DNA of 64,000 bases, taken from the IMG/VR virus record IMGVR_UViG_3300045972_000152, positions 1,134 through 65,133 of that record; one strand, 5' to 3'. Source of the stretch: a virus. Its lineage: Duplodnaviria > Caudoviricetes. The position numbers were made by a program, and so were the translations under genes. The notes under the pieces were generated by a model. It ran no database searches and was not told where the DNA came from. It worked only from the letters and a program-made list of their open reading frames with translations. Shown one piece after another: positions 64 through 63,207 of the stretch (positions are counted from its first letter, which is position 1; every line of letters starts with the position of its first letter).

Positions 64-258
64 ATGCAAAGCCTGTCTAAAGGACGGCACTTGCCACCAC
101 AAAACCGTAAGCGTGGGAGAATCGGCATGAAAGTAAAGAACCCTGAGCCGGGGCGTTATTGCCCCGATAGTCCACCCGAAGGCAAGCGCGGGATTTGCCC
201 CGTTTGTGGAGTGCCTTACAAACCCCCAGTCAAAGAGGAAGGCGATGGCAAGGAATGA
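64..258 (+). CDS. small Cys-containing hypothetical protein (possible Zn ribbon)
   Basis: YCP...CPVCG motif; its 3' end overlaps the probable start of the next gene. Confidence 0.45.
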   Translation: MQSLSKGRHLPPQNRKRGRIGMKVKNPEPGRYCPDSPPEGKRGICPVCGVPYKPPVKEEGDGKE

Positions 259-3603: not shown

Positions 3604-3848
3604 TGCCTACCGATGCAGATATCAAATGGCTCACAGACTTTAAAGCCGAGATTGACCAAGCTAAGATCGACAAGGCTGGCATTGATGGCGCTATCAATCA
3701 GAATATGGCTCGCCTCAAATCGGAATTCGGGTGCGGGTCCGTAGCTCAGGGCAACAGCAAGCTTCAGGCCCTCAAGACTAAGAAAGAACAACTTGACGTA
3801 CAGATAGAGGACTCCGTTGCGGTTCTCAAGGAGAAATACGGGCAATGA
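3603..3848 (+). CDS. small coiled-coil protein of the SbcCD cluster
   Basis: heptad-like sequence; coupled (ATGA) to the Rad50 C-half. Confidence 0.7.
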   Translation: MPTDADIKWLTDFKAEIDQAKIDKAGIDGAINQNMARLKSEFGCGSVAQGNSKLQALKTKKEQLDVQIEDSVAVLKEKYGQ

Positions 3849-29904: not shown

Positions 29905-31393
29905 GTCGCTTCACCGCTCCGATCTTGGTACTTCCGGATGTCCTCTTCTGTCCTTTTCCCGGCTTGCCCTGAACTGTCTTATCACCACCCCCCGGATTGT
30001 TGTTGTTAACGTTGCCGTTTGTGGCAGCAAGGTTACCGGCTTCAATCCGCTGTTCGATGAAGTCCATGGGAGTGATTTCCTCTTCCGGGTCGGAAGGGAT
30101 ATCCAGAACCTCACGAATCTTAGTTTCGACAGTCTTATCAGGAATAAGAGCACCTACGCCAACGAGTTTGTAGATAGCGTCAATGAACTTGGACATTTCG
30201 GCTTTCTCGATATCTCCCGGAACTAGAGTCGGCCAATACTCAGGTTCGATGTCGTTAACCATCATCAACTGCGGAATTGCCTTTTTATTGAAGACGCTGG
30301 CAATTCCGTCAAGCCACGCTCCAAGACTTATAGCGAAGAGGTCCGTCTTATCGCTCGACAGGGCGAAAGAACCAACTTTACTTTGACCTAGAAAGATAAA
30401 GTCGGCCACAACCGTCATGGCAATTCGCTTATCATAACGGTCAACTATCTGGCTGGTGTCGAACTGCCGCTGGCCCCCGGTGCTCAGAAGTTCAAGCTTG
30501 TAAAGCTCATTTCCGTCCGCATCGTAAACAAGCGGAAAGATAACGCCCTCCTGCTCATCACGGCGAATGTTCGTGGCAAGAGCCTTGAGAGAGAGGAGGG
30601 TTGCTTTTTCTTCGGGGGTAGCGTCTTCAGCAAGAAGACTTGCCGGAACCTTGATAACTACCAGACCGGCTAGGTCGCGCTCAATACCGATACCCTCAAT
30701 CTCCTCAATCCGTTTCTTGAACAGCCAAGAACGGTAACTGTTACGAAGAATAGAACGACCCATCGGACTGTTCTTATAAGACTGCGTGCGAAACAGAAGA
30801 ACTTTATCCATCGGTATTTTGACTTTCGTACCAATGGGAGGCAACTGTTCGATGGCAACCAAATCACCGTAGGTGTTGCTATTCGGGTCGGTGTCGAAAA
30901 TCCATTGCCAGATAGTTTCCTGAGCGCGAAGAGGGAGTTTGCGCCAGCCGATCTTACCGTCATTGAATTTACTGTGATAGGATGGATTGCTTTCCTTTAC
31001 TCCCCCGCGTACCTTATAGACTGTCTCAAGAGGCGCAAAGCCAAAAGTTAGCATGGAAAGGATTTCAGATATCATATCCTCCCAAGAATGTTCCATATCA
31101 CCCATACACTCGGTCAGGAAGTCAGCGGCCTCAACTGCAAACGCCTCATTGCTGGCCGGTGTGGACTTCCACTTGACCCTACGAAGCAGCTTTTCGATAA
31201 CAAAAAAGATTGCTCCGATGGTGGGATCGTTGTCCCGCATTTCGGCGTAGACTTTGATACCTTTTAGCCCCGCTAACTGCTTTAGGAACTCTTCGGATAT
31301 CTGATTACCGAAAATACGAAGTCCAGTGGAACCTATCTCCCGCATACTAGCTGCGGGACGCGACTTGGGGGATACTGCTGTAGTTCTAGCCAT
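29894..31393 (-). CDS. portal protein
   Basis: between TerL and Mu-F; Y.EMRDNDP, P.GRSILR, GIGIERDLAG, GSFALS. Confidence 0.9.
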   Translation of the reverse strand: MARTTAVSPKSRPAASMREIGSTGLRIFGNQISEEFLKQLAGLKGIKVYAEMRDNDPTIGAIFFVIEKLLRRVKWKSTPASNEAFAVEAADFLTECMGDMEHSWEDMISEILSMLTFGFAPLETVYKVRGGVKESNPSYHSKFNDGKIGWRKLPLRAQETIWQWIFDTDPNSNTYGDLVAIEQLPPIGTKVKIPMDKVLLFRTQSYKNSPMGRSILRNSYRSWLFKKRIEEIEGIGIERDLAGLVVIKVPASLLAEDATPEEKATLLSLKALATNIRRDEQEGVIFPLVYDADGNELYKLELLSTGGQRQFDTSQIVDRYDKRIAMTVVADFIFLGQSKVGSFALSSDKTDLFAISLGAWLDGIASVFNKKAIPQLMMVNDIEPEYWPTLVPGDIEKAEMSKFIDAIYKLVGVGALIPDKTVETKIREVLDIPSDPEEEITPMDFIEQRIEAGNLAATNGNVNNNNPGGGDKTVQGKPGKGQKRTSGSTKIGAVKRHVR

Positions 31394-31395: not shown

Positions 31396-32997
31396 TTACA
31401 CGCTCCTAAAGATGTTGGTTTTGGTCAAATCAGCAAAATGGGGAGAGGCGATTGTCGGGCCGCGTTGTCTACGCTCGCGTACCCGTTTTAGATACATACT
31501 CATGGGGTCGATTGTATCATCATGTTCACCCATGGGGAACTGCATACATTCCTCTTCGAAAGGTTGTATCCAGTTAGCATGTAGTTTGCCTTCGGGAATT
31601 TCCACATAACAAGTGGCATCTTCAGGAATCCAAACCGTACCAGCTTCGATAGCTATGGACTCGTTTTCCATACGAACTGTTTTGCTGAAGGAACCGGGGT
31701 CGATACCGATAATATTGAATTTAGTTTCCTCCTTTAAACAGGCAATGAGAGCTATGCCGGAAGACTTATCCTCTATCAGTATTTCATGTGGACGCCATAT
31801 CTGGCAAAGGTTCTTTGCTTGGCGCTTCAGCTCGGGGAAAGCGCACTTCTTTCGCCACATATAAATGAGATAGTAGCCAGTAGCAGTTTCGACCCAGACC
31901 TCACACACCGAATAGTCGTTAAGCTCGTTCTCTTTGCTGGCAGTATCGAATACTAGAGATATCCGTTTCCACGATTTTCGGTCAGGGGCAACCTTCCACC
32001 GCTTGAAGCTCAACATTGGGATGATGCCGCCCTCACGGGGGGAGGGACGTTGTTGCAACTGACCGGCAGAGGCGTAGGTACCGAGTGCCTGTTTGAGTAC
32101 GTTTATCTCAGGACGGCCAAAGCGTTCCGGCCAAAGCAGTTCACCCTCTTCCTTCCGGGGGTCACCCTTCCAGCCGTGAAAAGTTCTTAGGCTCATCTTG
32201 CGTTTACTTTCAAGCTCGTACTCAGCCGGAAGTATCAAGTAGGTATATTCATCGCCATACTTACGCATGATATGACCAGATAGATCAAGATAATGTGTTC
32301 TCTGCTGAATAGATACCAGCACCCCGGTCTTAGGGTCGTTGAAACGAGACTGCATTGCCTCATCGAACCAGTTGTTCGTGGCCGTTCTGGTTGTTTCGGA
32401 TTCGGCCTCACGCACGTTGTTAGCGTCATCAATGATGATGTAGTCGCCGCCCTCTCCGGTTGCCGTACCGTCAACAGAGGTAGCGATTCGGTAGCCGCCT
32501 TTATCGTTATCGAACCTTACCTTGGTATTCTGGTCCGAGGTAAGCCTAACAAGGTTACCCCAGCGTTCTTGATATAGTGGACTGTCAATGATACGGCGGC
32601 ACTTCACACCGTCACGAATGGAGAGCGAATGCGCGTAAGACGCGAAAAGAAACTGAAGCGCCGGTTTCTTTATCCACGCCCACGCGGGAAAACCTACGGA
32701 GATACCGAGAGATTTCATGTGGCGGGGAGGGATATTGATAAGCAAACGCCGTATATCACCAGTAAGTGTAGCGCTCATGTGCTCGCAGATGGCGTCGATA
32801 TGCCAGCCATGGACATAGGGGTGCGGGTCAATCGCCGTCCACATTTGGCGCAGGAAGTGAGACAGGGACTTTTCGGCTAATACCTTGTCTATTACCTCAG
32901 TCGGAGTGCTAAGGAGCCTTCTTGCCCTTAGAATGTCCTCTGAAGTAAGCTCTACTTGCGGGGCCTGTTGACGGCTTACGGGTGTCGTTCTTGACAT
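31396..32997 (-). CDS. terL: terminase large subunit
   Basis: INIPPRHMKS Walker A, IIIDD Walker B, QQRP, FDTA and HDDTID nuclease motifs. Confidence 0.95.
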   Translation of the reverse strand: MSRTTPVSRQQAPQVELTSEDILRARRLLSTPTEVIDKVLAEKSLSHFLRQMWTAIDPHPYVHGWHIDAICEHMSATLTGDIRRLLINIPPRHMKSLGISVGFPAWAWIKKPALQFLFASYAHSLSIRDGVKCRRIIDSPLYQERWGNLVRLTSDQNTKVRFDNDKGGYRIATSVDGTATGEGGDYIIIDDANNVREAESETTRTATNNWFDEAMQSRFNDPKTGVLVSIQQRTHYLDLSGHIMRKYGDEYTYLILPAEYELESKRKMSLRTFHGWKGDPRKEEGELLWPERFGRPEINVLKQALGTYASAGQLQQRPSPREGGIIPMLSFKRWKVAPDRKSWKRISLVFDTASKENELNDYSVCEVWVETATGYYLIYMWRKKCAFPELKRQAKNLCQIWRPHEILIEDKSSGIALIACLKEETKFNIIGIDPGSFSKTVRMENESIAIEAGTVWIPEDATCYVEIPEGKLHANWIQPFEEECMQFPMGEHDDTIDPMSMYLKRVRERRQRGPTIASPHFADLTKTNIFRSV

Positions 32998-32998: not shown

Positions 32999-33733
32999 TT
33001 AGACTCCTATCGTCGTGGCTTCATAGGAATCAAGAAGATCATCAATCGGCGTCATTTCGATAAGCTTGGGATTAGTCGGCATTGCGTTATTGGCATGCAC
33101 TACCATATCGCGCAAGGCTATCAATTGTTCCTCGTTCATGTTATCGAGGTCGGCGCTTACGCTAATTTGGGTATTTGTGATAGTTTGTTCACCTTTTACG
33201 TTAACGGTCATCTTCCAATCTTCGGGACGGCGGTTGGTAAGCCAGAAAGTGATAGCCTTAATATCAGGAAGCACTATCTTCTCAACAACGCTAACCTCTT
33301 TGGCCGGAATCTTGACTACCTTTCCAGCATCGTCCTTCTCACGTAGATAGATAGACTTGGTGGTACGCTCGGCGACCGTATAACCCAACGCACGTTTCAG
33401 CAACGCCTGTTCTACATGCTGGGTATCGAATTCAAATTTACCCTGCCGAACAGCGTCACGGAACTCCTCATGGGTCCGCATCCACATATCAACAGTCTTT
33501 TTGCCGACACCAAAGACTCGCGCAAGCTCCTCACTGGTAAAGCCGCGCTCCTTGCATAGGACATTTGCGATGTGAGGGAACCTGACCGGATCATATACAG
33601 CCGGTTGTCCACGCTCCCCCGTAGTGGCGGGAATCTGAATGTCAGGGCGGCGGCGTCCCTCTGCTTTCGGTCTTTCCCGCTCGCTTATGACTACCGGACC
33701 TTTTTTGGTGGAAATGATGGTCGTTCTTGCCAT
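32999..33733 (-). CDS. terS: terminase small subunit
   Basis: N-terminal HTH, ALLKRALGY, PDIKAITFWLTNRRPEDW; probable start MARTT at 33733. Confidence 0.88.
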   Translation of the reverse strand: MARTTIISTKKGPVVISERERPKAEGRRRPDIQIPATTGERGQPAVYDPVRFPHIANVLCKERGFTSEELARVFGVGKKTVDMWMRTHEEFRDAVRQGKFEFDTQHVEQALLKRALGYTVAERTTKSIYLREKDDAGKVVKIPAKEVSVVEKIVLPDIKAITFWLTNRRPEDWKMTVNVKGEQTITNTQISVSADLDNMNEEQLIALRDMVVHANNAMPTNPKLIEMTPIDDLLDSYEATTIGV

Positions 33734-33846
33734 GTCTATCACCTATTCGGAGAAATAAATAGTACAACGATGTTGGTGCATTAACACATCTATTTTAGAG
33801 AAAATACAAATTGTTCATTCTGGTCTTTTGTGACTGTATTTTTTTC

Positions 33847-40485: not shown

Positions 40486-41700
40486 ATGGATACCACGGCA
40501 CGTCAAACAATCGTTAAGGCAAGGGCGGCATTGATCCTTGACCATCCATTTTTTGGGGCGCTTGCCTTGCGCCTGTTGCTCAAAGAGGACACTGGATGCA
40601 AAACATCATGGGTTGACGGTGTAACCCTTGGTTATAATCCGGTTTATATCAATTCCCTTCCCATGGATGAAGTAAAGGCGCTTGTCTGCCATGAGGTGTT
40701 ACACCTTGCGCTTGCCCATCATACCCGCCGCAATGATCGGGATTTTGATGAATGGAACGAGGCGTGCGATTTCCCCACCAATCAAACCGTTCATGATGTG
40801 GGTATGCCGATTGGTAAGGGTTGGCTTTTCGACCCGCTCTATAAGGATTTAAACTCTGAAACCATCTATGACAAACGGCACCGGGAAAAACAACAGGGCG
40901 GCGGCAATGGTCCCGGTAATCAGCCGGGACAACCGCAACCGGGACAACCGCAACCGGGACAACCGCAACCGGGACAGGGGAAAGGGCAAGGCACCCCGCA
41001 ACCGGTACCGGGAGAAGTTAGGGATTTACCGGGAACGGATGGACAACCGGCAACCCAGACCCAGAAAGATATATCAGCGCAGGATTGGCAAGTTGCCGCA
41101 ACTCAGGCGGCGCAACAGGCTAAAGCTTGTGGCAGGCTTCCGGGAAATATTGAGGAGCTTATCGAAAAGCTGAATGAGCCTAAAGTTAACTGGAAAGAGG
41201 CGTTACAGCGGTTTGTTGAGCAACAGGCTAAAAATGATTACAGCTTCCGTCGTATCAACCCCCGCTTTGCCGGTCGCGGGGTGTGCCTCCCCTCTCTGCA
41301 CTCTGAAGAGTTGCCCCCCATCCGGGTTGCGATTGATACCAGCGCATCGGTTAGCAAGGAGGAGTTGGAGCAATTCGCAAGTGAGATTGACGATATATTG
41401 TTTCACTATCCCACTACCGTAGAAACCATCTATTGCGATACGAGGGTTAACGGCACCGAAACCTTTAGCCGGGAGAATCGCCCTGTAAAGCTTAATGTAA
41501 AAGGCCGGGGCGGCACCCGCTTTAGTCCTGCATTTGAGCATGTGGAAAAGCTGGGAGAGGAAACCACCTGCTTGATATACCTATCTGATATGGACTGTGA
41601 TGATTTCGGTCCCGCTCCTGATTATCCGGTACTGTGGGTACAGACGATGGGAAAAGCTAAAAAGGTTCCTTTCGGTGAACTTATCAGGATGAACAAATAA
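40486..41700 (+). CDS. HEXXH metallopeptidase-like plus VWA domain protein (DUF2201-like)
   Basis: HPFFG, HEVLH..AHH.RR, IDTSAS MIDAS-like motif, GRGGT.F.P, YLSD. Confidence 0.85.
   Translation: MDTTARQTIVKARAALILDHPFFGALALRLLLKEDTGCKTSWVDGVTLGYNPVYINSLPMDEVKALVCHEVLHLALAHHTRRNDRDFDEWNEACDFPTNQTVHDVGMPIGKGWLFDPLYKDLNSETIYDKRHREKQQGGGNGPGNQPGQPQPGQPQPGQPQPGQGKGQGTPQPVPGEVRDLPGTDGQPATQTQKDISAQDWQVAATQAAQQAKACGRLPGNIEELIEKLNEPKVNWKEALQRFVEQQAKNDYSFRRINPRFAGRGVCLPSLHSEELPPIRVAIDTSASVSKEELEQFASEIDDILFHYPTTVETIYCDTRVNGTETFSRENRPVKLNVKGRGGTRFSPAFEHVEKLGEETTCLIYLSDMDCDDFGPAPDYPVLWVQTMGKAKKVPFGELIRMNK
40924..40976. repeat. 15-bp coding tandem repeat (PGQPQ)
   Basis: unit ccgggacaaccgcaa, about 3.5 copies. 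Confidence 0.9.
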
Positions 41701-44404: not shown

Positions 44405-46186
44405 TTGGACAAGGACAAGCTCGCACTTATCAAATCTAGGTATACCACAAAGCCCGTGGAACAGGCACCGAGGGGGGCAAACCCCGCCCCCCTGTACTTT
44501 GACCGCCTTGCCTCTCTTGACCCTTCTGGGCGTATCCTTATGCGCTTTAAGAAGCAAAAGGTGTTGGTTGAGTGTGTCAAGAAGATCACCCGCCGCCACT
44601 TCGAAGGGGAGCGCAAGGGTTATGTGTATTGGAGCGCACCATTTACCCTTGAAGCGGTTAGATATCTTCGCACGGGTAATTTTCGCCTGACTCCTGAACT
44701 GGTGGAGAAGGAAAGTGCAGCAACCCGCCCCATTAAGCTTGACATGAATTTTACCATCACCGGCCTACAGAGAGAACTACGCCACTTCCAGTATGAAGGG
44801 GTTGCTTTTCTTGAGGCGATGTTAAAGGAACACCCCGGCGCTATCATAGGTGACGAACCGGGACTAGGAAAAACCGCACAGTTTTTGGCCTACCTGCAAC
44901 GACACCCCGAAGAACGTACAGCCGTTATCGTATGCCCCGCCACACTCAAACTCAATTGGGCAAAAGAGATTTTCCTGTGGATGATACCCACACCGGAGAA
45001 TCGCGTATATCTTCTATCCGGAATGACCCGCCGTACTTGTGAGGAAATCACCATGTATCGGGGCCGCTTAGTGATACGCGAATGCCCTATTCCTGCCAAA
45101 GGTATTTTCATTATCAACTATAACATAGTAATCGACTGGTACGAGGTGCTTTTATCCCTCAAACCGAAAATCATAGCGTTTGATGAAGCACAAGCACTGA
45201 AGAACAAAAAGACTATGCAGACTGACGTTTGCATGAAACTGGCAACAGGTAACCCGGATGATGGTTGGCGCGGAATTCCCAAGCGTATCCCCATTACCGG
45301 TACCCTGTTTGAAAACAACGTGCAGGAATTGTTTAACTCCCTTTCCATGGTGCGACCCGACCTGTTCACCTCATGGTTTAAGTTCAACGAGCGATATAAT
45401 AAGGAAATGAGGACTAAGGACAGGACACTGGAATTGCATAAGCTTATCAAGCTGGCTTGCATTCGAAGGAAAAAGCGGGACGTGTTGAAAGAGTTGCCGC
45501 CTAAGATCAAATCGGTAATTCCTCTGAATATCACCAACTCTTCAGAGTACATGCAAGCAGAGAATAACTTTCTATCGTGGATCAAAGGTACCAAGGGTCA
45601 AGAAGCCTCAGACAGAGCAATGCTAATTAAAGGGTTGGCAAGGATCAACGCCCTAAAAGAAATCGCCGTGAAAGGCAAAATAGACGCTTGTATAAAGTGG
45701 ATTGAGAACTATTTAGAGTCTGGGGAAAAGTTGGTAGTATTTGCGGAACATACTTGGATTGTTGATAAGGTATGCAAGCATTTCAAAGGCCGTGCTGTGA
45801 TGATTGACGGTAGGATAACCGGAGTCAAGCGCAACGAAGCGGTTGAACGTTTCCAGACTGACCCGAATATCGTGCTATTCATGGGACAGATTAAGGCGGC
45901 AGGTACCGGCTTGACCTTGACGGCAGCAAGCGCAACCTGTACCCTCCAACTTGTATGGAATCCGAAGGTACACGAACAGGCTGATGATAGGGTGCATCGA
46001 ATAGGACAGGAAGACAGCGTAAATAACTACTATCTAATATCCTCTGATACAATAGAAGAGGATTTAGCATACGGTCTTGATGAGAAGGATATCGAAGCAG
46101 CACTTATCATGGACGGCGAAGAAGTGGTAAGCGTCAATCTACTCTCTTCCATTATGCGCCGTATGAAGGAGAGACACGGCCTATGA
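44405..46186 (+). CDS. SNF2-family helicase/ATPase
   Basis: GDEPGLGKT, FDEAQ, ITGT, GTGLTLT, QADDRVHRIGQ. Confidence 0.92.
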   Translation: MDKDKLALIKSRYTTKPVEQAPRGANPAPLYFDRLASLDPSGRILMRFKKQKVLVECVKKITRRHFEGERKGYVYWSAPFTLEAVRYLRTGNFRLTPELVEKESAATRPIKLDMNFTITGLQRELRHFQYEGVAFLEAMLKEHPGAIIGDEPGLGKTAQFLAYLQRHPEERTAVIVCPATLKLNWAKEIFLWMIPTPENRVYLLSGMTRRTCEEITMYRGRLVIRECPIPAKGIFIINYNIVIDWYEVLLSLKPKIIAFDEAQALKNKKTMQTDVCMKLATGNPDDGWRGIPKRIPITGTLFENNVQELFNSLSMVRPDLFTSWFKFNERYNKEMRTKDRTLELHKLIKLACIRRKKRDVLKELPPKIKSVIPLNITNSSEYMQAENNFLSWIKGTKGQEASDRAMLIKGLARINALKEIAVKGKIDACIKWIENYLESGEKLVVFAEHTWIVDKVCKHFKGRAVMIDGRITGVKRNEAVERFQTDPNIVLFMGQIKAAGTGLTLTAASATCTLQLVWNPKVHEQADDRVHRIGQEDSVNNYYLISSDTIEEDLAYGLDEKDIEAALIMDGEEVVSVNLLSSIMRRMKERHGL

Positions 46187-46933: not shown

Positions 46934-47269
46934 ATGATATTCGATAGAGCCAAGTTCATTAGGAAGACTGAGCCAACGGAGCTTTCCAAACTTGTAGAGC
47001 AAGCTGATAATATTTTTGAAACCCGCTATAAGGACACCCGCCCACGGTTCGAAGTGGGGTTGAGGAAGTTCATAACAATACGTAAATTCAAAATAGGTCA
47101 TCTGAGTGTTCAGGTATTTGAGGAATTCGAAACCGGCAATGTCTTACTGGGTGAATATCATTCTGGCTCTTGGAGTTTGGAGTTTTTAGCAGACAGACAC
47201 CTAAGTAAAGAAGAGATACAGGTTTTTCTCGTTACCGAGCGATTACTGGGGGCCATTGATGCTAATTAA
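46934..47269 (+). CDS. small protein, VTxR[LI] group
   Basis: ends FLVTERLLGAIDAN. Confidence 0.65.
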   Translation: MIFDRAKFIRKTEPTELSKLVEQADNIFETRYKDTRPRFEVGLRKFITIRKFKIGHLSVQVFEEFETGNVLLGEYHSGSWSLEFLADRHLSKEEIQVFLVTERLLGAIDAN

Positions 47270-47468
47270 ATGTATGTTCTGCGGTGAAGATATACAGCCA
47301 AAGAAATATTCAATAGTTGAAATCAAGAGCGGGGCCGTGGCTGAGTTGTTAGGATTCGATATAGGTAATGCAAAGTCCATGGACGTTAGGCTACACCCTG
47401 ACTGTGCCCAAGTTGTAAAGGTTACCATCCGAATTCACAGCGAACAGATTGGCTTTACTTTATTCTAA
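47256..47468 (+). CDS. CxxC-HxxC Zn finger protein, VTxR[LI] group
   Basis: CMFC...HPDCAQVVKVTIRI. Confidence 0.6.
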   Translation: MMLIKCMFCGEDIQPKKYSIVEIKSGAVAELLGFDIGNAKSMDVRLHPDCAQVVKVTIRIHSEQIGFTLF

Positions 47469-47477: not shown

Positions 47478-47666
47478 ATGAATTGTCCGGTATGCAGGAA
47501 AGAGGTCAAGACCACGGGACGCAAGGCTAAGGGTTATTCGCGTGTTGCTAACACCTTCTTCCCCTCAATGATGGATATACCTTGGGAAGAGTCACACCAT
47601 CTGATTCATTCCCATTGCAAGGCGGCGGTGAATGTGACCCACCGCCTGTTGGAGTCCACAAGATGA
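47478..47666 (+). CDS. CxxC-HxxC Zn finger protein, VTxR[LI] group
   Basis: CPVC...HSHCKAAVNVTHRLL; SD AAGGAG. Confidence 0.65.
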   Translation: MNCPVCRKEVKTTGRKAKGYSRVANTFFPSMMDIPWEESHHLIHSHCKAAVNVTHRLLESTR

Positions 47667-48391
47667 AATGCCCAGTATGCAAAAAGACCCTTCAGAAGCT
47701 CCAAAAACGGCCACCGTGGGCATATTCACCGGGGAACTACCGGCAACGCCAGAAAGACGAACAGGAGCGCCTAAAGCAATCCATGCTCGCCTATACAGAA
47801 GTGAGGACTGCGTATGACGATGTGCTTGGTGTACCTCATAAGGAAACTCCATATTACATGCACAACGAGTGCGCCGATGCCTACTTTGCAACGGTGCGTT
47901 TGCTTAGATCAACCGGAGAACTCAAGAGCCGCGCTGAAATACTAGCCGAACAACTGCTAGAATTTTCAAATCAAAGAGCTATCAAAATGATGAACAACGG
48001 CATTTTTGGTAAAATCGCCAACTCAAGTTTTAATAGTATCGTAAACATTGGCATGTTTCCTGAGCAACCTCCGTTAAACGATACAGTAGACGCTTTAGCT
48101 TACGTTACTTACGCCCAGAACACTCATCGGTTGCATGGAAGTAGCGGAAGTGTAATTATGATAGATGACGTTGAAACCGAATCAACCCCGGAAGACCGAG
48201 CTAAAGTTAAAAAGTGGTATGATGATGTTCTTACGAAGCGTAGGGCGCAGGTTCTTTCCACTAACCACGATTTTCTAAAAGGAACTATCGACTTCGAAAT
48301 CAAGATCGACCATGACAAGAACTGGGATACCAACAATGCAGATATTATAAAGAACATAAAGGACGCACTTGAAAAGCTAAGGGGGATGTGA
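47663..48391 (+). CDS. Zn finger plus patchwork of PolB-, terminase- and capsid-like motif fragments
   Basis: probable start ATG 47663 (ATGA overlap); CPVC...HNEC, ATVRLL, then motif look-alikes (see findings). Confidence 0.75.
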   Translation: MKCPVCKKTLQKLQKRPPWAYSPGNYRQRQKDEQERLKQSMLAYTEVRTAYDDVLGVPHKETPYYMHNECADAYFATVRLLRSTGELKSRAEILAEQLLEFSNQRAIKMMNNGIFGKIANSSFNSIVNIGMFPEQPPLNDTVDALAYVTYAQNTHRLHGSSGSVIMIDDVETESTPEDRAKVKKWYDDVLTKRRAQVLSTNHDFLKGTIDFEIKIDHDKNWDTNNADIIKNIKDALEKLRGM

Positions 48392-48978
48392 TGGCAAGGA
48401 CAACAGGAAAACCCGCAACACCGGCAGCACCTACCATTTCGCGGCACATGGAATACAAGGGATTTACCATCGCTCGCATGAGTAACGGTGAAACTTGGTA
48501 CTATGAGCCGGGAGAGCCGTACTATGTAACACCGGACGTTCCGACAGCAAAAGGGGAAATAGACGCGATGTTAGACGAACCGAAAGAGTACACCGGCAGG
48601 GGCCACGGTGGATACATCTATGGACCGCCCGAGTGGTGCAAGCGTAGGGTGCAGTTCGACGGAGAGCCGGGATATTGGTGGGCTGACGCCATACTCTGCC
48701 ACGGCTCCTGCAAAGAGAACCATCATTGTCCCGTGTTCACAGAGTTCATGGCAGGACAGCGGGACAGGATTAAACTGATGAATACCGAAAAAGCCGGTCC
48801 CGAGTGTCCTCACTGCAAAAGTCCTCTTCAGGTGGAGTATCCCAATCATACCGCCGTTTACGGGTGTGGCACTATCTACAGTCGAATTTCCAGCGATTAC
48901 AAGCAACATTGCCCCGTTAAAGGCAAGAAGAAAGAACCGGAAGCCGAACAGCCACCCAGACGCCGCCGCACCACTTAG
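48391..48978 (+). CDS. Cys-rich hypothetical protein starting MARTTG
   Basis: multiple Cys clusters; ends RRRRTT. Confidence 0.65.
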   Translation: MARTTGKPATPAAPTISRHMEYKGFTIARMSNGETWYYEPGEPYYVTPDVPTAKGEIDAMLDEPKEYTGRGHGGYIYGPPEWCKRRVQFDGEPGYWWADAILCHGSCKENHHCPVFTEFMAGQRDRIKLMNTEKAGPECPHCKSPLQVEYPNHTAVYGCGTIYSRISSDYKQHCPVKGKKKEPEAEQPPRRRRTT

Positions 48979-48990: not shown

Positions 48991-49194
48991 ATGGGAAAAC
49001 CACAACCAAACAAAGGCAAGGGGATTTGCCCCGTATGTCTCAAGCTGGTAAGTATCACGGCGAACGGGAAAATTAGAGGTCACTGGTTCCACCACTTGCC
49101 CACACCGTACCCGGAAGGTACTAGCTACAAGTGCGACGGTTCTTATCGTATATATAGGGGAGAGTATGTCATCACTAAATCCACAACCCAATAA
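48991..49194 (+). CDS. small Zn-binding protein
   Basis: GICPVC...H...CDGS; SD GGAGGG. Confidence 0.6.
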   Translation: MGKPQPNKGKGICPVCLKLVSITANGKIRGHWFHHLPTPYPEGTSYKCDGSYRIYRGEYVITKSTTQ

Positions 49195-49429: not shown

Positions 49430-49913
49430 TGAGCAGGAGTTTCACAAGCTGGTTGCTAGTGTTAAGCTTGAGGCACCGGGGGCTGAGTGGGCCTTCAAGG
49501 ATTGGCAGCATAACGATGCCACCAAAGCGGGGTTGTTTCATCGCTTTCCCTACCTCGCCCCGAAACCGGTCAACGTTATATCTCTCATCAATTCGATGAT
49601 CCGTGACATTCAACGTGCTACCGGTTTCCTGACCAAGATAGAAATGAAGGTTACCGTGGAAGGCTTGCAAGTCATGGTGTTGATTCACAACGGCAAGCAA
49701 AAGAAGACATACGGCATCGACAACGTGTTCACTGCCGACCACTTGGCCGACCCTGAGAACTGGAAGTATCTAACTGAACAGCGCGATAAGATCATCAAAG
49801 CTGTTCAGGGTGCCGTGCTCCCCTTGCGTCCCATAATCAGAACGGAGGAAGTCCACGGAATGAAAGTAGATGTTGTTGAGGAGGGACACTATGACCCCGC
49901 CCAAAAAGGATAG
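49392..49913 (+). CDS. hypothetical protein
   Basis: start MLEAIAKK with AAAGGAG SD. Confidence 0.6.
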   Translation: MLEAIAKKNGFRDEQEFHKLVASVKLEAPGAEWAFKDWQHNDATKAGLFHRFPYLAPKPVNVISLINSMIRDIQRATGFLTKIEMKVTVEGLQVMVLIHNGKQKKTYGIDNVFTADHLADPENWKYLTEQRDKIIKAVQGAVLPLRPIIRTEEVHGMKVDVVEEGHYDPAQKG

Positions 49914-50121
49914 AAGCGGAGAGGAGCGGGAGGAGGAGGTTGAACCCGCAGGGGAACTCAAACGGGTTTGCGGCGAATGCCCTTTCTGCAACGCCGAGGG
50001 CGAAGACGTGTTTGAGCGCAGATACTACAAGTGTGGCTCCTATGCCGACAGAGAAACGGGAGAGCACATCCAACAGTGCTACACTCCAATAATCACAACA
50101 CAATGGGGGCCATTGCGATGA
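49870..50121 (+). CDS. small Cys-containing protein
   Basis: CPFC...YKCGS...QC, similar to the C-terminal part of ORF 48391. Confidence 0.5.
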   Translation: MLLRRDTMTPPKKDRSGEEREEEVEPAGELKRVCGECPFCNAEGEDVFERRYYKCGSYADRETGEHIQQCYTPIITTQWGPLR

Positions 50122-50490
50122 ACGATGAACACGAAAAGTATCAACCCGAGGACGTTTGTGAAAAGACCCTGAAGTTCCTACGCGAAAAGCGTAATAACGC
50201 AATGGCAGCCGGTGACAGTGCTGCTTTCACCGGATACAACCGCCGGATAATGGAAATCCTCTGTGGGATGAATCCCTCATAAGGAGAAGTTATGAAAGAG
50301 ATATGCTCCTGTTGCGGGATTGGTTATCAACTATTTAATTCCGCTCTTTTCAATCCCCACCTTAAGATCAAAGGTTATCTAGTTCCAGTTTGCGTAAGCT
50401 GTGCAGCTAGCGCCTTTGAAACTTCCTTCAGGATAGTATTCGGGATGAAGGTGGGAACCGAGTACACCTAACACACCGGGGATCAACGCC

Positions 50491-51411
50491 GTGGCATTTG
50501 ATGTTGTAAAATTCTACAATGACTATCACGTACCAATCGCAACTAGCGGTAAGCACTATCGCGCGGGGTGGGTTAACACCAACTGCCCCTTTTGCGGTGG
50601 ACGTGATGGTCATTTGGGTGTCTTCCTCGCAACCGGCGCAATCAAGTGTTGGAAGTGCGGCAAGCACGGAGAGGTTGAAGTTATCAAAGCCCTCCTTGCT
50701 TGCGACTGGGACAGGGCAGTAGAGATACACAGGCAGTATGAGAAGAGGGGTAGACGTGCCGCAGGGGAGGCACAAACCCGTCTCAAGGCAACCGCTACAG
50801 TCTGCGAATACCCAAGCTTCACCGGCCCCCTAAACTCCGCTCATAGGGCATATTTGGAAGGCCGAAAATATGACCCCGACCTTTTAGCCGAGGTATGGGG
50901 GTTAAGAGGTACCTCAAACCTTGGGGATTACAAGTTTCGTATCATCGCACCAATAACCCTTGACGGTAAAATGGTGAGTTTCCAAGGACGTGATATAACT
51001 AATCAATCTGACATGAAGTACAAGGCTTGCAAGAAGGAGAGGGAGGTTGTAGACCATCAAGATGTGGTGTATGGGCTAGATCAGGCCAAACGTAAGGCGT
51101 GTGTGCTAGTGGAAGGTATCGCGGACGTGTGGCGGTTAGGTCCGGGGGCGGTATGCTGTTTCGGTATCGCGTACACCATGGCTCAGGTAAACCTCCTAGT
51201 CAAGAAGTTTAAGACGGTTTATATCATGTTTGACGGTGGTGAAACAGAAGCTGCAAAACAGGCTAGAAAGATAGCCTTACTCCTGAGCAACCGAGGAGTG
51301 GATGTTGAAATGCTTTTCCTTGACAGCGGTGACCCCGGCGAAATGTCTCAGGTTGATGCGGACGAACTTATGCGCGACCTGTATTTGGAAGGGTATAGAA
51401 ATTTTCGTTGA
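50491..51411 (+). CDS. DNA primase (Zn finger plus TOPRIM)
   Basis: CPFC..H...CWKC, RIIAPI, FQGR, KY, LVEGIAD, MFDG, DPGE. Confidence 0.88.
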   Translation: MAFDVVKFYNDYHVPIATSGKHYRAGWVNTNCPFCGGRDGHLGVFLATGAIKCWKCGKHGEVEVIKALLACDWDRAVEIHRQYEKRGRRAAGEAQTRLKATATVCEYPSFTGPLNSAHRAYLEGRKYDPDLLAEVWGLRGTSNLGDYKFRIIAPITLDGKMVSFQGRDITNQSDMKYKACKKEREVVDHQDVVYGLDQAKRKACVLVEGIADVWRLGPGAVCCFGIAYTMAQVNLLVKKFKTVYIMFDGGETEAAKQARKIALLLSNRGVDVEMLFLDSGDPGEMSQVDADELMRDLYLEGYRNFR

Positions 51412-52193: not shown

Positions 52194-52814
52194 ATGATGG
52201 ATTGTGAAATATGCGATAACTCCCCGGTGGTAAAACTTATCAATGGAAAGAATCACTGTGAGGATTGTGCGTATGAGGCACAAATGCCCGACTACCTCAA
52301 GCAACTGGGAGTGCTGCCGGTGTTCTGGGGCGCACGCCTCACACAATGCCCCGGCTTACCTTACGAAATGCTTGATAAGAGTCTATTTATCACGGGTGAC
52401 GTGGGAACGGGCAAGACACACATGGCAGTTGCCATGCTCGTTGACTATATCAAGGGTGTTCCTTTCTCCAAGGTCAAGGAATGCGACTTTGTAACGATGC
52501 TGGGGCTTCTTGACGAAATCAAGGGGAGCTTTGGTAAGAGTGTGGGTGAACAACTAAATCTTATCAATCACTACTGCGAAATCGAATACTTGGTGATTGA
52601 CGATATCGGTGTCGAACTTCCGTCCGATTGGGCTATGACTCACATTTACCGCATAATCAATACGAGGTGGGGGTGTGATAAGCAAACCATCTTCACCTCT
52701 AACTTCAACTACAAGCAGTTGGAAAAGAAACTTGACGCTCGCATCGTTTCCCGCGTAATGGGAATGTGCGAAGTAGTTGAACTGACCGGGAATGACCTAC
52801 GCAAGAGGAGGTAA
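52194..52814 (+). CDS. DnaC/IstB-like helicase loader ATPase
   Basis: GDVGTGKTH, LVIDDIG, IINTR, IFTSN, RIVSR. Confidence 0.88.
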   Translation: MMDCEICDNSPVVKLINGKNHCEDCAYEAQMPDYLKQLGVLPVFWGARLTQCPGLPYEMLDKSLFITGDVGTGKTHMAVAMLVDYIKGVPFSKVKECDFVTMLGLLDEIKGSFGKSVGEQLNLINHYCEIEYLVIDDIGVELPSDWAMTHIYRIINTRWGCDKQTIFTSNFNYKQLEKKLDARIVSRVMGMCEVVELTGNDLRKRR

Positions 52815-52818
52815 CGCC

Positions 52819-54357
52819 GTGGCTGTAACACGCCGTAAAATTGATACTAAGATTGAACGAGATATTTTGACCGGAATGATTGTTTCGGATCACTACCTAC
52901 GGGAAGTTATCCCGCTCTATTCCGCTGACCTTCTGGAAATGACCTTCGCTCCAATTATCGCTTCTTGGTGTATCGAATTCTACAAGAATTACGAAGAGGC
53001 ACCAAGAAGAGAAATCGAAGACCTCTATGAGCACTGGGCAAAAACAGCAACCGACCCGGAGCAGATACGTTTCGTCAAGGAATTTCTTGCAACTCTTTCC
53101 GAGGAGTACGAAAGGGCCGACCACTTCAACGTTCCTTACCTGATTGATAAGACCGTGGCTCATTTCGGAATACGGGCTTTCAGCAATCTCGGGGAGGACC
53201 TGAAGTTCTACACCGATAAAGGTGACCTTGACGGCTGCAAAGAAGCCTACAACGAATTTCGTACCGTTGAAAAGGTCATGTCTCAGGGCATTGATCCTTT
53301 CGATGATGAACAAGCAATTCAAAAGGCATGGGAAGCTAAATCGGCCCCCCTCTTCCAACTCCCCGGTAAATTGGGGGAAATGATGAACGAGCAGTTCACC
53401 CGTGAGTCTCTTGTTGCGATGATGGGTGTTGCCAAGATCGGTAAGACATGGTTTCTCGATTGGTTATCAAAACAGGCGCACCGCCAACGCTGCAACGTGG
53501 CTTATTTCCAATTGGGTGACCTAACTGAGGCTGACTACGTTCTCAGAACACATATCACCCTCGCGCAACGTTCCAACAAAAAGAAATACTGCGGGGAGAT
53601 ACTTGTACCCGTTCTCGACTGCGAACACAATCAGCGTGATAATCCCGTGCGCTGTCTCCAATATGCCAACAAGCGTACCTGTAGCAGTGGGTGTTACGAT
53701 AACGGCGAAAAAATGAGCTTTCAAGACGCCGTGGGGTACGTTCCCTGTACGGCGTGCCAACATGACCACCGAAGCCCGTTTAAGGGTGCTGTGTGGCACG
53801 CCGTCAGGCCCCCGGTTCAGCCGTTGGAGTGGCAAGAAGCCTACCAGAACGGAGTGAGCTATAAGAAGAAGATCAAGGCCAAAGGTTTCCGGCTCGCCAC
53901 TTTCCTAAATGATAGCTGTTCCATGTCCATGATCGACAATCAGTTATCAACGTGGGAAGAGGAAGACGGTTTTGTGGCTGACGTGATAGCAATCGACTAC
54001 ATGGACATTGCCGCCCCAGAACCCGGCCCCGGTGATGAGCGTTTCCAAGAGAACAAGAAATGGAAAGCTGCTCGCCGGTTATCTCAGAAACGCCACGCAT
54101 GTGTCCTAACTCTGTCTCAGGCAGATACAGACGCTATGGATACTCCGATACTTACCCGAAAGAACTTCACTACCGACCGGCGCAAGTATGACCATGTGAC
54201 AGCCTTCTATGGGTTGAACCAGACACCCTCCGAGAAAAAAGAGGGTATCATGAGGATAGGGGAGATTCTGGTACGTGAGGGAGAGTTTGATATAACATCA
54301 CTGGTAACAATTGGGCAATGCCTCGCCATTGGTAAAGCATACCTGTTCAGCTACTAG
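52819..54357 (+). CDS. DnaB-like replicative helicase with Cys-rich insertion
   Basis: GVAKIGKT, IAIDYMD, TLSQ, GLNQT; GTG start with GAGGAGG SD. Confidence 0.8.
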   Translation: MAVTRRKIDTKIERDILTGMIVSDHYLREVIPLYSADLLEMTFAPIIASWCIEFYKNYEEAPRREIEDLYEHWAKTATDPEQIRFVKEFLATLSEEYERADHFNVPYLIDKTVAHFGIRAFSNLGEDLKFYTDKGDLDGCKEAYNEFRTVEKVMSQGIDPFDDEQAIQKAWEAKSAPLFQLPGKLGEMMNEQFTRESLVAMMGVAKIGKTWFLDWLSKQAHRQRCNVAYFQLGDLTEADYVLRTHITLAQRSNKKKYCGEILVPVLDCEHNQRDNPVRCLQYANKRTCSSGCYDNGEKMSFQDAVGYVPCTACQHDHRSPFKGAVWHAVRPPVQPLEWQEAYQNGVSYKKKIKAKGFRLATFLNDSCSMSMIDNQLSTWEEEDGFVADVIAIDYMDIAAPEPGPGDERFQENKKWKAARRLSQKRHACVLTLSQADTDAMDTPILTRKNFTTDRRKYDHVTAFYGLNQTPSEKKEGIMRIGEILVREGEFDITSLVTIGQCLAIGKAYLFSY

Positions 54358-59030: not shown

Positions 59031-60197
59031 ATGGAAAAGCAGCGTTACATCTTTGCAGAAGTATTGGAAGATACAGCTCTTGAGCAGTTTGACAGCGCAA
59101 TGACGCAGCCGTTCGTTATGGCGGGTGCGCTCATGCCGGATGCTCATACCGGTTATGCACTCCCCATCGGTGCAGTTATTGCAACTAACAGTGTGCTCGT
59201 TCCGGCGTGGGTAGGTTATGATATCGGTTGCGGGGTATGCGCTGTGCGTACCACCTTCAGCGCCACAGACATCATTTCTAACGGTACCCAAATTTTCGAA
59301 GCTATCTACAGCGCAATCCCGACCGGCAAGGGGGCGCAGAACTCCGAGCCTTCCGAGTGGCCACAGTTCGAACAGATGTGTCTAACGCAGGAATTCAAGC
59401 GCATCTTTCGGGAGCGCAAGGGCCTTCACCAACTCGGCTCTCTGGGAGGCGGTAATCATTTCATCGAAATCGGATACGACAACAAGACCTACGAGGTCTA
59501 CATCATCATCCATTCTGGTTCCCGCGGCATAGGTCATACCGTGGCTACTCATCACATGACTCTCGCCGCCGACATGCACACCGGTATCAAGAAGCCGCTG
59601 GAAGGCCACTACGGATTTGATATCAAAAGCAATGAAGGCGCGGCCTATTTCCTCGACCAAACGGCGTGTGAAGTTTTCGCGCTGGAAAATCGCCGTCAGA
59701 TGATGTACCGGGTTATCACCTGCATCCAGAAGTTTTGTACGGGTAAAGGTCTGTGGACCGACTTTATCAACCGTAACCATAACCATGTAGAAAAGAACGG
59801 CGCAACCGGCTGGTGGATACACCGTAAGGGTGCTACTCAGGCCAACAAGGGTTACGGCGGGGTGATCCCCGGCAACATGCGGGACGGCTCTTTCATCGTT
59901 GAGGGTTTGGGCAACCCTGACTCGCTTTGGTCCTCCTCTCACGGGGCGGGGCGCGTCATGGGGCGCGAAGAAGCCAAGAGGGGCAAGCGGGACAAGGTAA
60001 CCGGTCAACAACTGACCGAACCTCTTTCTATGACCGAATTTGAGCGTTCTATGGGGGGTATTGTGGCGCGGGTCACCCCCGGAACCATAGACGAAAGCCC
60101 CATGGCGTACAAAGATATCCATTCCGTTATGAGGCAGCAATCGAAGCTGGTTGCAATTCGTGCTCATATCATACCGCTCATAAACGTCAAGGGGTAA
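59031..60197 (+). CDS. rtcB: RtcB RNA ligase
   Basis: MPDAH.GY, GYDIGCG, GSLGGGNHFIE, HSGSRG, NHNH, HRKGA, SSHGAGR, DESPMAYK. Confidence 0.95.
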   Translation: MEKQRYIFAEVLEDTALEQFDSAMTQPFVMAGALMPDAHTGYALPIGAVIATNSVLVPAWVGYDIGCGVCAVRTTFSATDIISNGTQIFEAIYSAIPTGKGAQNSEPSEWPQFEQMCLTQEFKRIFRERKGLHQLGSLGGGNHFIEIGYDNKTYEVYIIIHSGSRGIGHTVATHHMTLAADMHTGIKKPLEGHYGFDIKSNEGAAYFLDQTACEVFALENRRQMMYRVITCIQKFCTGKGLWTDFINRNHNHVEKNGATGWWIHRKGATQANKGYGGVIPGNMRDGSFIVEGLGNPDSLWSSSHGAGRVMGREEAKRGKRDKVTGQQLTEPLSMTEFERSMGGIVARVTPGTIDESPMAYKDIHSVMRQQSKLVAIRAHIIPLINVKG

Positions 60198-61140: not shown

Positions 61141-63207
61141 GTGTCTGATGGTTTCTTCCGAAATTCTGAAATATCGTCATTCAAGAAGCGTGCGCCCTTG
61201 CCCCCGGTCCTGAATGCTCCCCGCCCCAAAGCGAAGGAGAAGAAGGAGAAGAAGTACGAGGGACTTGATGAGTGGCAAGCGGTGATGGATATAGAAGTAT
61301 ATCCCAACTACTTCCTCATAAAGTTCATGCGTATGACCGATGAAAGGGTTTGGGGGTTTGAGCGCACGCAGTACGAGGAACTTGATTATAGGGGGATCAA
61401 CTTCCTCCTCGACTCCTATGAGGTTATAACCTTCAACGGCACCAACTTCGATATTCCGATACTGGAATATGCGATGACCGGTGCAAGTAACAAACAGTTG
61501 TACGACGCCACTCAGGACCTTATCGGAAACGGGCTATCTTCATACAAGTTCAGGGAGAAGCACAGTCTTTCCCGTGACTTTAGCATTGACCATATCGACC
61601 TCTCAGAGGTTGCCCCCGGAGTCAGAATCTCCCTGAAACTCTACGGTGGGCGGCTCCATTGTAAGCGTATGCAGGACTTGCCCTATGACCCGCATAAGTG
61701 GCTTACCGATGATGAAATGGATAAGGTCAACGAATACTGTGACCGCGACCTTGATAAGACCAAACTTCTGTTCCTCGACCTGTTACCTCAGATCAACCTG
61801 CGCCGTACCCTGAGCAAGCGTTACAAGATGGACCTTCGTTCTAAGTCAGATGCTCAGATTGCAGAAGCAGTTATCACCTCCGAACTAACCAAGATGCTCC
61901 CAAGGGGCCAGAAGCTTGAGAAGCGGGAAATTGCTTCGAGTACCTTCCGATACAAGGCCCCGGCCTTTATCAGCTATAACGACCCGACCCTGAAGAAGGC
62001 ATTGCAGATCGTTACCACCGAGCGTTTCCAGATAGAAGCCAACGGAAGAATTTCGATGCCTAAGGAGCTTGAGGAACTTCAGGTGAAGCTGGGTAGCTCA
62101 GTCTACAACATGGGAATGGGAGGCTTACACTCTACCGAGAAGAAAACTTTTCACGTTGCCACGGCTGATATTGCGCTTTGGGATTGGGACGTAACGAGCT
62201 ACTACCCGGAGATTATCCGGCAGCTAAAGCTCTACCCGAAACAACTAGGCCCCAACTTCCTTCCTGTTTATTGCGGTATCATTGATGAGCGTGTAGTCGC
62301 CAAAGTTGAAGCAAAACGGTGTAAGGATAATGGTGACGAAAAGGGAGAGAAGGATAATAAAGTAAAAGCCGACTGTTTCAAGATTATCGTTAACGGGTCA
62401 TTCGGAAAGCTAGGTTCGCCCTACTCCATTCTGTATGCCCCGGAACTGATGATTCAGGTTACCGTTACCGGACAGCTTTCCCTCCTCATGCTTATCGAAA
62501 TGTTAGAGAATAAGGGTATCAACGTCGTGTCTGGAAACACTGACGGAATTGTCATGAAATGCCCGAAGAATAAAGAAGACATGATGAAGAAGATAATCAA
62601 GCACTGGGAGAGCTTGACCGGATTTACCATGGAGAGCGAAAACTACCTTGGCCTGTTCTCGCGTGACGTGAACAACTACATTGCCGTGAAGATGGACGGC
62701 AATGTGAAGCTTAAAGGCACCTATGCTGAATCGGGTATTAACAAGAACCCTGAGCACGACATTTGTACGGACGCCTTGATTGATTACATTCGTTTCGGAA
62801 CCCCGATTGAGGAAACGATAAAGAACTGTAAGGATATCAAAAAGTTCGTCACTGTCCGCACAGTCAACGGTGGTGCTGTTAAGTATTACGATAAGTTCGT
62901 TCCGGTTCATTCCAGTAAGGTTGAGCTTATCCGTATGGCGGGTATGCACCCAGACCGCAAATCACTTGATTGGACCTACAAGCTTGCTGTTGCCGAACTC
63001 ACCAAACACAACCACACGGAGTATTTAGGTAAGGCGGTGCGCTGGTACTACTCTACAATTGAGAACGGACCTATCACTTATCAAGTGAGCGGCAAGCAAG
63101 TTCCGGTGTCGGACGATTGCAAACCAATCATGGACATAACCATACCGTTCCCAGACGATATGGATTATCTGTGGTATATCAATAAGACCAAAGAACTTTT
63201 CGGGTAA
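61141..63207 (+). CDS. family B DNA polymerase
   Basis: exo DIE, FNG..FD, YC..D; pol motifs DVTSYYP, KIIVNGSFGK, NTDGI, KLKG. Confidence 0.93.
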   Translation: MSDGFFRNSEISSFKKRAPLPPVLNAPRPKAKEKKEKKYEGLDEWQAVMDIEVYPNYFLIKFMRMTDERVWGFERTQYEELDYRGINFLLDSYEVITFNGTNFDIPILEYAMTGASNKQLYDATQDLIGNGLSSYKFREKHSLSRDFSIDHIDLSEVAPGVRISLKLYGGRLHCKRMQDLPYDPHKWLTDDEMDKVNEYCDRDLDKTKLLFLDLLPQINLRRTLSKRYKMDLRSKSDAQIAEAVITSELTKMLPRGQKLEKREIASSTFRYKAPAFISYNDPTLKKALQIVTTERFQIEANGRISMPKELEELQVKLGSSVYNMGMGGLHSTEKKTFHVATADIALWDWDVTSYYPEIIRQLKLYPKQLGPNFLPVYCGIIDERVVAKVEAKRCKDNGDEKGEKDNKVKADCFKIIVNGSFGKLGSPYSILYAPELMIQVTVTGQLSLLMLIEMLENKGINVVSGNTDGIVMKCPKNKEDMMKKIIKHWESLTGFTMESENYLGLFSRDVNNYIAVKMDGNVKLKGTYAESGINKNPEHDICTDALIDYIRFGTPIEETIKNCKDIKKFVTVRTVNGGAVKYYDKFVPVHSSKVELIRMAGMHPDRKSLDWTYKLAVAELTKHNHTEYLGKAVRWYYSTIENGPITYQVSGKQVPVSDDCKPIMDITIPFPDDMDYLWYINKTKELFG

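Follow-up and report, generated by a model that had tools for sequence, protein, structure and literature searches.

Why would a tailed phage encode, among its replication genes, a small protein whose C-terminal half resembles pieces of the phage's own packaging and head proteins? The question is raised by the gene at 47663-48391 (plus strand) of a 64,000-nucleotide stretch of DNA, here called the window, which corresponds to positions 1,134 to 65,133 of IMG/VR record IMGVR_UViG_3300045972_000152. The window covers nearly all of this 65,133-bp record (completeness estimate 90%), and the host genome of the gene is that of an uncultured tailed phage of about 65 kb. An earlier note on this DNA had described the gene product, P0001, as a patchwork of look-alikes of motifs from family B DNA polymerase (PolB), the large terminase subunit (TerL, two segments), the capsid protein and the tail tube, strung behind a zinc finger, and had proposed that it is an immune decoy. 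The present analysis partly confirmed this observation and partly supported the interpretation. One block of the tail is homologous to the Walker-B strand and the following helix of the lineage TerL. We tentatively read P0001, with a probability of roughly 40%, as a composite binding protein, in which a CxxC...HxxC module precedes a non-catalytic tail with TerL-derived and, in three of its four relatives, capsid-derived blocks.

The P0001 family

The open reading frame (ORF) is real and encodes 242 amino acids (aa), and all strings that had been quoted were found where they had been placed: the six from P0001 start at residues 107, 131, 159, 173, 221 and 206, and the six with which they were compared at PolB 413, TerL 486, 181 and 199, residue 149 of the 320-aa head protein and residue 307 of the tail tube. 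The gene, its blocks and the two small ORFs related to its first part are as follows.

47663-48391, plus strand: P0001 gene, 242 aa, translated ORF; relatives begin MKCPVC, MNCPVC or MRCPVC
47663-47920, plus strand: zinc-finger module, P0001 aa 1-86, defined on alignment A3; no Pfam family
47981-48016, plus strand: K-x3-N-[GS]-x-[FY]-G-K block resembling PolB motif B; carried by three of the five members
48053-48103, plus strand: F-P...D-x-[IV]-D-A block around the invariant D143, distinct in three of the five members
48128-48247, plus strand: TerL-like block, aa 156-195, strand G-x4-VIMIDD followed by helix K-K-W-Y-D-D-V-x3-R
48323-48388, plus strand: C-terminal block W-x(6-10)-[DN]-I-[KR]-x-A-x3-[LI], aa 221-242
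47478-47666, plus strand: stand-alone paralog of the zinc module, 62 aa
47256-47468, plus strand: weaker stand-alone paralog of the zinc module, 70 aa

Within the replication module, P0001 is encoded by a real accessory gene, and a rare one. When 1.84 billion representatives were searched exhaustively with phmmer, four proteins came back at E <= 0.001, P0001 itself included, the others being P0003 (187 aa, 1.3e-21), P0004 (229 aa, 4.9e-20) and P0005 (320 aa, 4e-5). A fifth member, P0130 (282 aa), was obtained when whole TerL-related phage records were searched with the family profile. It is carried by G001, a complete phage of 75,381 bp with terminal repeats, which shares with the window the gene order SNF2 helicase, small zinc-finger ORFs, P0001 homolog and a Cys-rich protein homologous to the product of 48388-48978. 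No further member was detected with the family profile in 36 further TerL-related virus records (the TerL ORF was matched in 28 of them, nothing in 8), by tblastn and blastn against phage records, by IMG/VR pattern scans with A1, P0003, P0004 and P0005, or in metagenome contigs and GTDB genomes, and a word-index protein search with P0001 returned P0001 itself only. Pfam, NCBIfam, PHROGs, PDB (by sequence) and PADLOC gave no assignment for P0001; in PDB, again by sequence, the TerL clade of the window is likewise without a relative.

Alignment A3 of the five members contains 20 invariant columns, with identities to P0001 of 28-42%. Four of the invariant residues, C3, C6, H67 and C70, are candidate zinc ligands. 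The two ligand pairs of a zinc ribbon or treble clef are conserved across the family, and metal binding is predicted. The module closes with the helix A-x-Y-x-A-T-x-R-L-L-x-S-x-G, in which the earlier note had seen a TxRL motif. Among curated zinc-finger families none was matched above threshold, the best being Lar_restr_allev with E 0.069 in one member. Both stand-alone paralogs lie directly upstream of the P0001 gene, where they were found with a hidden Markov model (HMM) of the zinc block among the 509 six-frame ORFs of the window (E 2.4e-8 for the 62-aa and 0.006 for the 70-aa ORF), and a stand-alone module is present in G001 too. A resemblance between the terminal helix of the module and a capsid helix was considered and rejected (family HMM, E at least 2.6).

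In the C-terminal half of P0001, short conserved blocks alternate with linkers that vary greatly in length. The G-x4-hhhhDD strand is found in all five members, with G159, D168 and D169 invariant, and the K-x-W-[FY]-[DE]-[DE] helix in four. All five also carry the C-terminal block, in which W221, I232 and A235 do not vary; P0005 and P0130 have C-terminal extensions. As had been predicted for homologs, different relatives hold or lose different tail blocks in alignment A3. The description of pieces too short for catalysis behind a zinc finger holds in part; no member shows a complete ATPase, nuclease or capsid fold signature.

Likenesses to terminase, capsid and polymerase

The genes and segments that the tail resembles are given below. 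Two background sets were used, the 509 ORFs of the window and 1,253 natural sequences that include 113 true TerLs and 6 true capsid proteins. The TerL HMM was built from 54 homologous sequences, the capsid HMM from the capsid protein of the window and 5 homologs from fetched loci.

31396-32997, minus strand: TerL, 533 aa, with Terminase_6C (phrog_4758, E 4.7e-47)
32332-32472, minus strand: TerL segment resembled, aa 176-222, Walker-B strand and helix with invariant W210
25885-26847, minus strand: major head protein, 320 aa, HK97-type (phrog_1005, E 1.8e-81)
26293-26430, minus strand: capsid segment resembled, major head protein aa 140-185
61141-63207, plus strand: PolB
62377-62412, plus strand: PolB motif B, FKIIVNGSFGKL

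The likeness to the Walker-B region of TerL, as originally noticed, was borne out by Smith-Waterman alignment, family HMM, TerL HMM and hhalign, and robustly so in four of the five members. Compared as whole proteins, P0001, P0004 and P0005 aligned to the same TerL region, from 165/181 to 218/235, with p of 0.005, 0.002 and 2e-5. P0001 aa 150-215 matched four lineage TerLs with p between 1e-3 and 2e-5, and the same segment test gave 2e-4 to 2e-5 for P0004, 1.5e-6 to 2.5e-9 for P0005 and 0.03 to 0.006 for P0130; P0003 was not significant against the four TerLs. When strand and helix were tested separately, p was <= 0.016 in all five members and <= 0.002 in four. In the direction from family to window, the block HMM retrieved TerL with E 2.9e-6 (runner-up 0.56) and left the window's other ATPases unmatched. 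In the direction from TerL to family, the TerL HMM ranked family members straight after the 113 true TerLs, and in each member it recognized one domain and no more, the Walker-B strand with its helix; the Walker-B sub-model yielded values of 2e-6, 7.8e-5 and 1.2e-3 for family members and 0.12 for the best decoy. Profile-profile alignment of family and TerL by hhalign reached probabilities of 83-92% (P 5.5e-7 to 9e-6), and the large terminase family phrog_4758 matched P0005 with E 6.4e-5.

The family shares with TerL the hhhhDD strand after G-x4 and the helix W-[FY]-[DE]-[DE] with a terminal basic residue, at equal spacing, and identities amount to 23/59 between P0005 and the TerL of G001 and to 15/39 between P0001 and the TerL of G002. 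The Walker-B acidic pair and following helix of the TerL ATPase are present, and this block is homologous to those elements of the lineage TerL. The two proteins differ in length, 533 aa in TerL against 242 aa in P0001, and P0001 adds a zinc finger at its N-terminus and has its gene among those for replication.

Little else of TerL could be recognized. The Walker-A sub-HMM found nothing in P0001, P0003, P0004 and P0130 and aligned 'LPPRSGKSM' in P0005 with p 0.0075. Sub-HMMs for the C-motif, the lid, the hinge with nuclease beta1 and GWxDPR gave nothing in the family, and those for the N-terminus, beta2 and the middle region no significant match. The second TerL likeness that had been claimed, to the nuclease end, turned out to be at the level of chance: the corresponding sub-HMM gave p 0.13, 0.03, 0.11, no match and 0.02 over the five members, and TerL was outside the top 8 of the 509 ORFs for the HMM of the F-P...D-x-[IV]-D-A block. 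Two further candidates were rejected, a likeness of the second domain of P0005 to the TerL lid region (0.5 bits) and a recent DNA-level duplication of the TerL gene, as the two genes show no DNA similarity. Having no Walker A, C-motif, nuclease domain or capsid fold, P0001 cannot be a terminase or a capsid protein.

For the C-terminal block, the likeness to the capsid protein that had been claimed for P0001 stood in three of its four relatives and not in P0001. With the capsid HMM, shuffled versions of the block (1,000 shuffles) equalled the natural one in 0/1000 cases for P0005 and P0004, at a frequency of 0.001 for P0003 and of 0.007 for P0130. Among the 1,253 natural sequences, the capsid sub-HMM placed P0005, P0004 and P0003 (0.007, 0.06 and 0.064) straight after the 6 true capsids, the best decoy being at 0.22. 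In the reverse search, an HMM of the C-terminal block made without P0001 had four capsid proteins in its top 5 (E 3.3e-4, 0.009, 0.18 and 0.33). The remaining match in that top 5 is a 571-aa ORF of another phage (L081, 5493-7205, plus strand), directly after TerL and in portal position; it carries near its N-terminus 'W...DP...MMEDIKRA', a motif also found in capsids and in the family tail (E 0.016-0.04).

P0005 allowed the two likenesses to be separated. Whole P0005 aligned to the capsid protein of G002 with a Smith-Waterman score of 86 (p 2e-7). Its residues 168-227 matched TerL (score 102, p 5.5e-11) and not the capsid protein, and its residues 228-320 matched the G002 capsid (score 58, p 1.2e-4) and not TerL, so that about 60 TerL-like residues directly adjoin about 50 capsid-like ones. 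The TerL and capsid likenesses show a clean double dissociation in P0005. More generally, capsid-like segments compared with TerLs gave p >= 0.11 in 20 of 20 tests, and TerL-like segments compared with capsids p >= 0.077 in 17 of 20 and 0.018-0.021 in the other 3. Beside this stands the observation that, in the G002 proteins, TerL aa 199-225 weakly resemble capsid aa 150-178 (score 43, p 0.014), a resemblance that could make it harder to tell where one likeness ends and the other begins.

An independent capsid family points to the same place: phrog_1650 (major head protein), a remote sister of the lineage capsid family, matched P0005 with E 0.0095 and P0004 with E 0.15 at the motif-homologous position. 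The capsid segment concerned is the most conserved one, and the only part of the capsid matched by the broad family phrog_29. Calibrated on 17 phage protein alignments, hhalign gave P 0.0073 for the capsid, or 0.0011 with other column settings. The capsid families (phrog_1005 with its sisters phrog_29 and phrog_1650) have in common with P0005, P0004 and P0003 the pattern W-D-D-E-x3-D-P-x-E-D-I-K-x-A-R-x-K-[IV]-L-x2-T-G-x2-P, with 19/55 identities in P0005, 7/13 in P0004 and 13/27 in P0003. The match differs from that expected of a capsid protein in being local, 13-59 residues against a 320-aa HK97-type protein, and no family member matched the capsid family profile over its full length. Judged from sequence, the capsid likeness is real in P0003, P0004 and P0005 and at chance in P0001.

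The likeness to PolB motif B, whose consensus in family B DNA polymerases is K-x3-N-S-x-Y-G, was borderline. With an HMM of the block from three members in correct register, PolB was the top non-self ORF and aligned exactly on motif B (E 0.058), and the post-hoc pattern K-x3-N-[GS]-x-[FY]-G-K occurred, in 2.26 million six-frame residues from 119 loci, only in the P0001 and P0130 genes and two PolB genes. The reverse search gave E about 2, hhalign P 0.046 and Smith-Waterman segments p 0.017-0.34. Polymerase motifs A and C and exonuclease motifs are absent from the family, and no Pfam polymerase family was matched. Co-variation of the block with the phage's own PolB was rejected, as the PolB motif of G001 does not track P0130. 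The window's PolB is common to G000 and G001 only among 16 records examined. P0130 was matched by phrog_1907 ('DNA polymerase', E 0.0084), which we take to be another polymerase type, because it did not match the PolB of this phage and did match genomes such as those of E. coli, B. subtilis and Thermus. We regard the PolB likeness as suggestive, not established. A fifth resemblance, to the tail tube, was rejected for P0001 as chance (p 0.38 and 0.94).

Readings of the locus

In the composite reading, the zinc-finger module is predicted to serve as a common anchor and P0001 to act by binding, without catalysis. Through the blocks derived from TerL and capsid, it would compete for some partner with which fresh TerL or capsid protein is normally in contact; candidates are a factor in assembly or packaging and a host factor or sensor. 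In P0001 itself, the TerL-like block would be intact and the capsid-like block decayed. Competition for such a contact fits because the residues kept are the invariant ones of the parents, the Walker-B acidic pair, the Trp helix and the capsid segment.

Several points weigh against this reading. P0001 may be one ordinary small domain. Moreover, hhalign aligned the family colinearly from 28 to 238 with TerL 32-307 at 92% probability; this speaks for descent from TerL alone, in which case the likeness to the capsid would be a coincidence. For P0001 itself, the C-terminal block reached p 0.23-0.66 in the capsid segment test and E 47 with the capsid HMM among the 1,253 sequences, and P0130 gave p 0.57-0.89 in the segment test. 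The capsid hhalign P of 0.0073 is close to the values for an unrelated Cys-rich neighbour (0.01) and a scaffold protein (0.033). The statistics have their own limits: the natural-decoy database is small and TerL-rich, shuffled controls destroy local composition, p-values of the five members are not independent as the members are homologous, and the best chance matches are drawn by high-information motif columns.

The main rival takes up the colinear alignment. From about residue 28 onwards, the protein would be one colinear, heavily shrunken and degenerate TerL ATPase domain from which Walker A has gone and in which zinc ligands have arisen; its resemblance to capsid and PolB would be coincidental, and the protein a non-catalytic regulator or left with residual function only. 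We hold this to be unlikely, though ahead of the other rivals. The colinear hhalign probabilities of 90.3% (A1 28-201 with TerL 33-219), 82.9% and 92.3% (28-238 with 32-307) speak for it, as do the fit of 'LPPRSGKS' in P0005 to the Walker-A sub-model (p 0.0075), a further upstream TerL-like piece retained in P0004 (FDKGAF versus NDKGGY) and an N-terminal helix that is weakly and colinearly alike in two of five members (p 0.018-0.025). However, no sub-model was significant beyond the Walker-B block, and the TerL HMM found a single domain in each member. The C-terminal block, moreover, fits the capsid ungapped, whereas its fit to TerL needs a 13-aa deletion and lacks statistical support.

Illegitimate recombination could also have left bits of phage genes behind a zinc finger, of which only the latter would be functional while the tail drifts. 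The zinc module does stand alone in the two neighbouring ORFs and in G001, tail blocks were lost piecemeal across members, and no DNA-level similarity to the TerL gene is left. G+C content also differs along the gene, being 42-44% in the tail-coding half (47900-48350), 52% in the zinc-finger half and 53-55% in the next gene. Such debris is improbable, however: seven tail columns (G159, D168, D169, D143, W221, I232 and A235) stay invariant in five members at 28-42% identity to P0001, from which we infer that the tail is under selection.

The decoy proposed at the outset would be expressed early and, as a concatenate, would tie up the host sensors for terminase, capsid, polymerase and tube with no activation resulting, or hand them to a protease. 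The TerL- and capsid-like blocks do copy the most conserved segments of both parents, and the TerL-like one retains D168, D169 and the Trp in the helix behind them. According to PMC13601566, Avs2 senses the TerL ATPase domain, SeAvs3 reads immutable active-site residues, and EcAvs2 makes a stacking contact with a TerL Trp that lies 18 residues past the Walker-B Asp and grips a single 11-aa terminase helix in its TPR pocket; the reported Avs targets include TerL, capsid protein, tail tube and DNA polymerase (PMC13581612). PMC13581612 states, however, that in at least 12 of 14 Avs families the sensor wraps around the entire core of its target, with broad interfaces complementary in shape, for which a string of short motifs would be a poor fit. 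Small TerL-like or terminase-resembling proteins, T4 vs.8 and Ksap1/2, are described as activating Avs2 and not as blocking it (PMC13601566), and neither of the reported anti-Avs proteins ORF55 and ORF83 is a mimic, one being a ligase and the other DprA-like (10.1101/2025.06.06.658234). In P0001, neither the tube piece nor the nuclease piece rises above chance, the PolB piece is borderline and the capsid piece decayed. A decoy function thus appears mechanistically strained, and we give it little chance. The same low chance applies to a mimic in which the zinc scaffold would display the least mutable segments of TerL (the Walker-B face and the exposed Trp helix), of capsid and perhaps of polymerase, and, made from the replication module ahead of the late proteins, would pre-occupy or mis-assemble host pattern-recognition receptors or other factors that sense fresh TerL and capsid monomers. 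If true, it would be the first trigger-mimicking anti-defence protein; the literature searched, including the November 2026 review PMC13728456, named no phage-encoded mimic of a protein trigger such as terminase or capsid.

Finally, a small metal-dependent nucleotide hydrolase or nuclease, to which the invariant D143, D168 and D169 and a deviant G-x-x-G-K phosphate-binding loop ([GS]-x-[FY]-G-K, which three of the five members carry 50-80 residues ahead of the DD strand) might belong, is very unlikely, as the loop is missing in 2 of 5 members and is without the Walker-A Ser/Thr, and as no enzyme family was matched in Pfam, NCBIfam, PHROGs or PDB.

Genome setting and known systems

Head, packaging and tail genes occupy the minus-strand half of the window and replication genes the plus-strand half. 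The P0001 gene lies in the replication module, with the SNF2 helicase on one side and the primase on the other. It overlaps both of its neighbours, by its ATG with the stop codon of the ORF upstream and by its own stop codon with the GTG of the ORF downstream. Besides the genes given above, the following landmarks were assigned.

32999-33742, minus strand: TerS
29894-31393, minus strand: portal
21476-22660, minus strand: tail tube
44405-46186, plus strand: SNF2 helicase
48388-48978, plus strand: Cys-rich protein, 196 aa, start overlapping the P0001 stop; no family match; same position kept in G001
50491-51411, plus strand: DnaG-type primase
52792-54357, plus strand: DnaB-like helicase

Gene position suggests early expression of P0001; a scan for promoters and terminators gave sites no more numerous than in shuffled sequence. 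Among sequencing runs, a search listed DNA runs of pond metagenomes, one of them perhaps the source of the record, and no RNA run. No tRNA gene was found by a tRNA gene scan of the window. The 196-aa Cys-rich protein has a counterpart of 225 aa in G001 (L083, 648-1325, minus strand); aligned by hhalign, the P0001 family gave P 0.01 with the 196-aa protein across its CxxC region, and it is a possible partner protein. Small Cys-rich ORFs cluster around P0001 on the plus strand, at 47256-47468, 47478-47666, 48991-49194, 49870-50121 and 50292-50471. The one at 48991-49194 matched phrog_6601 (E 1.7e-5), and those at 49870-50121 and 50292-50471 are without family match.

Further observations concern other genes of the window. 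The replication module contains a full-length RtcB RNA ligase homolog (59031-60197, plus strand; Pfam RtcB, E 4.2e-84); ligases of this type are able to mend tRNAs that anticodon nucleases of the host have cleaved. At the left end, an AAA_23/AAA_15 ATPase (206-1447, plus strand) is weakly like LmuB, AriA, GajA and PtuA (best E 2.2e-10), and a 204-aa protein (3845-4459, plus strand) resembles the candidate defence component mad3 (E 1.8e-6). Together, these two may form a phage-borne defence or exclusion module. In the early region, a 404-aa protein (40486-41700, plus strand) matched phrog_1314, annotated as HNH endonuclease (E 2.4e-96).

If the composite reading of P0001 holds, the phage would have built a small accessory protein from the best-conserved parts of two hallmark proteins that it encodes itself. 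Bacterial immune receptors have recently been shown to watch those same hallmark proteins, and P0001 would then offer a cheap and concrete test of trigger mimicry as counter-defence or as liability. If the protein is merely a decayed TerL ATPase paralog, it would add a zinc-finger-fused form without P-loop to the few stand-alone terminase-like proteins, such as T4 vs.8. Like P0001, T4 vs.8 is a small accessory protein that shows kinship with the ATPase domain of terminase and whose gene lies apart from those for packaging; it differs in that it is reported to keep Walker A, Walker B and the whole fold, and it has neither a zinc finger nor a capsid-like piece (PMC13601566). A direct relationship between the two was rejected (hhalign probability 0.14%). 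The PLE protein Gpi provides a second parallel, as a small accessory protein that is aimed at the packaging motor and binds the phage TerL. Gpi is satellite-encoded and an inhibitor (10.1101/2024.04.22.590561), and it is by this role, not by sequence, that we liken it to P0001.

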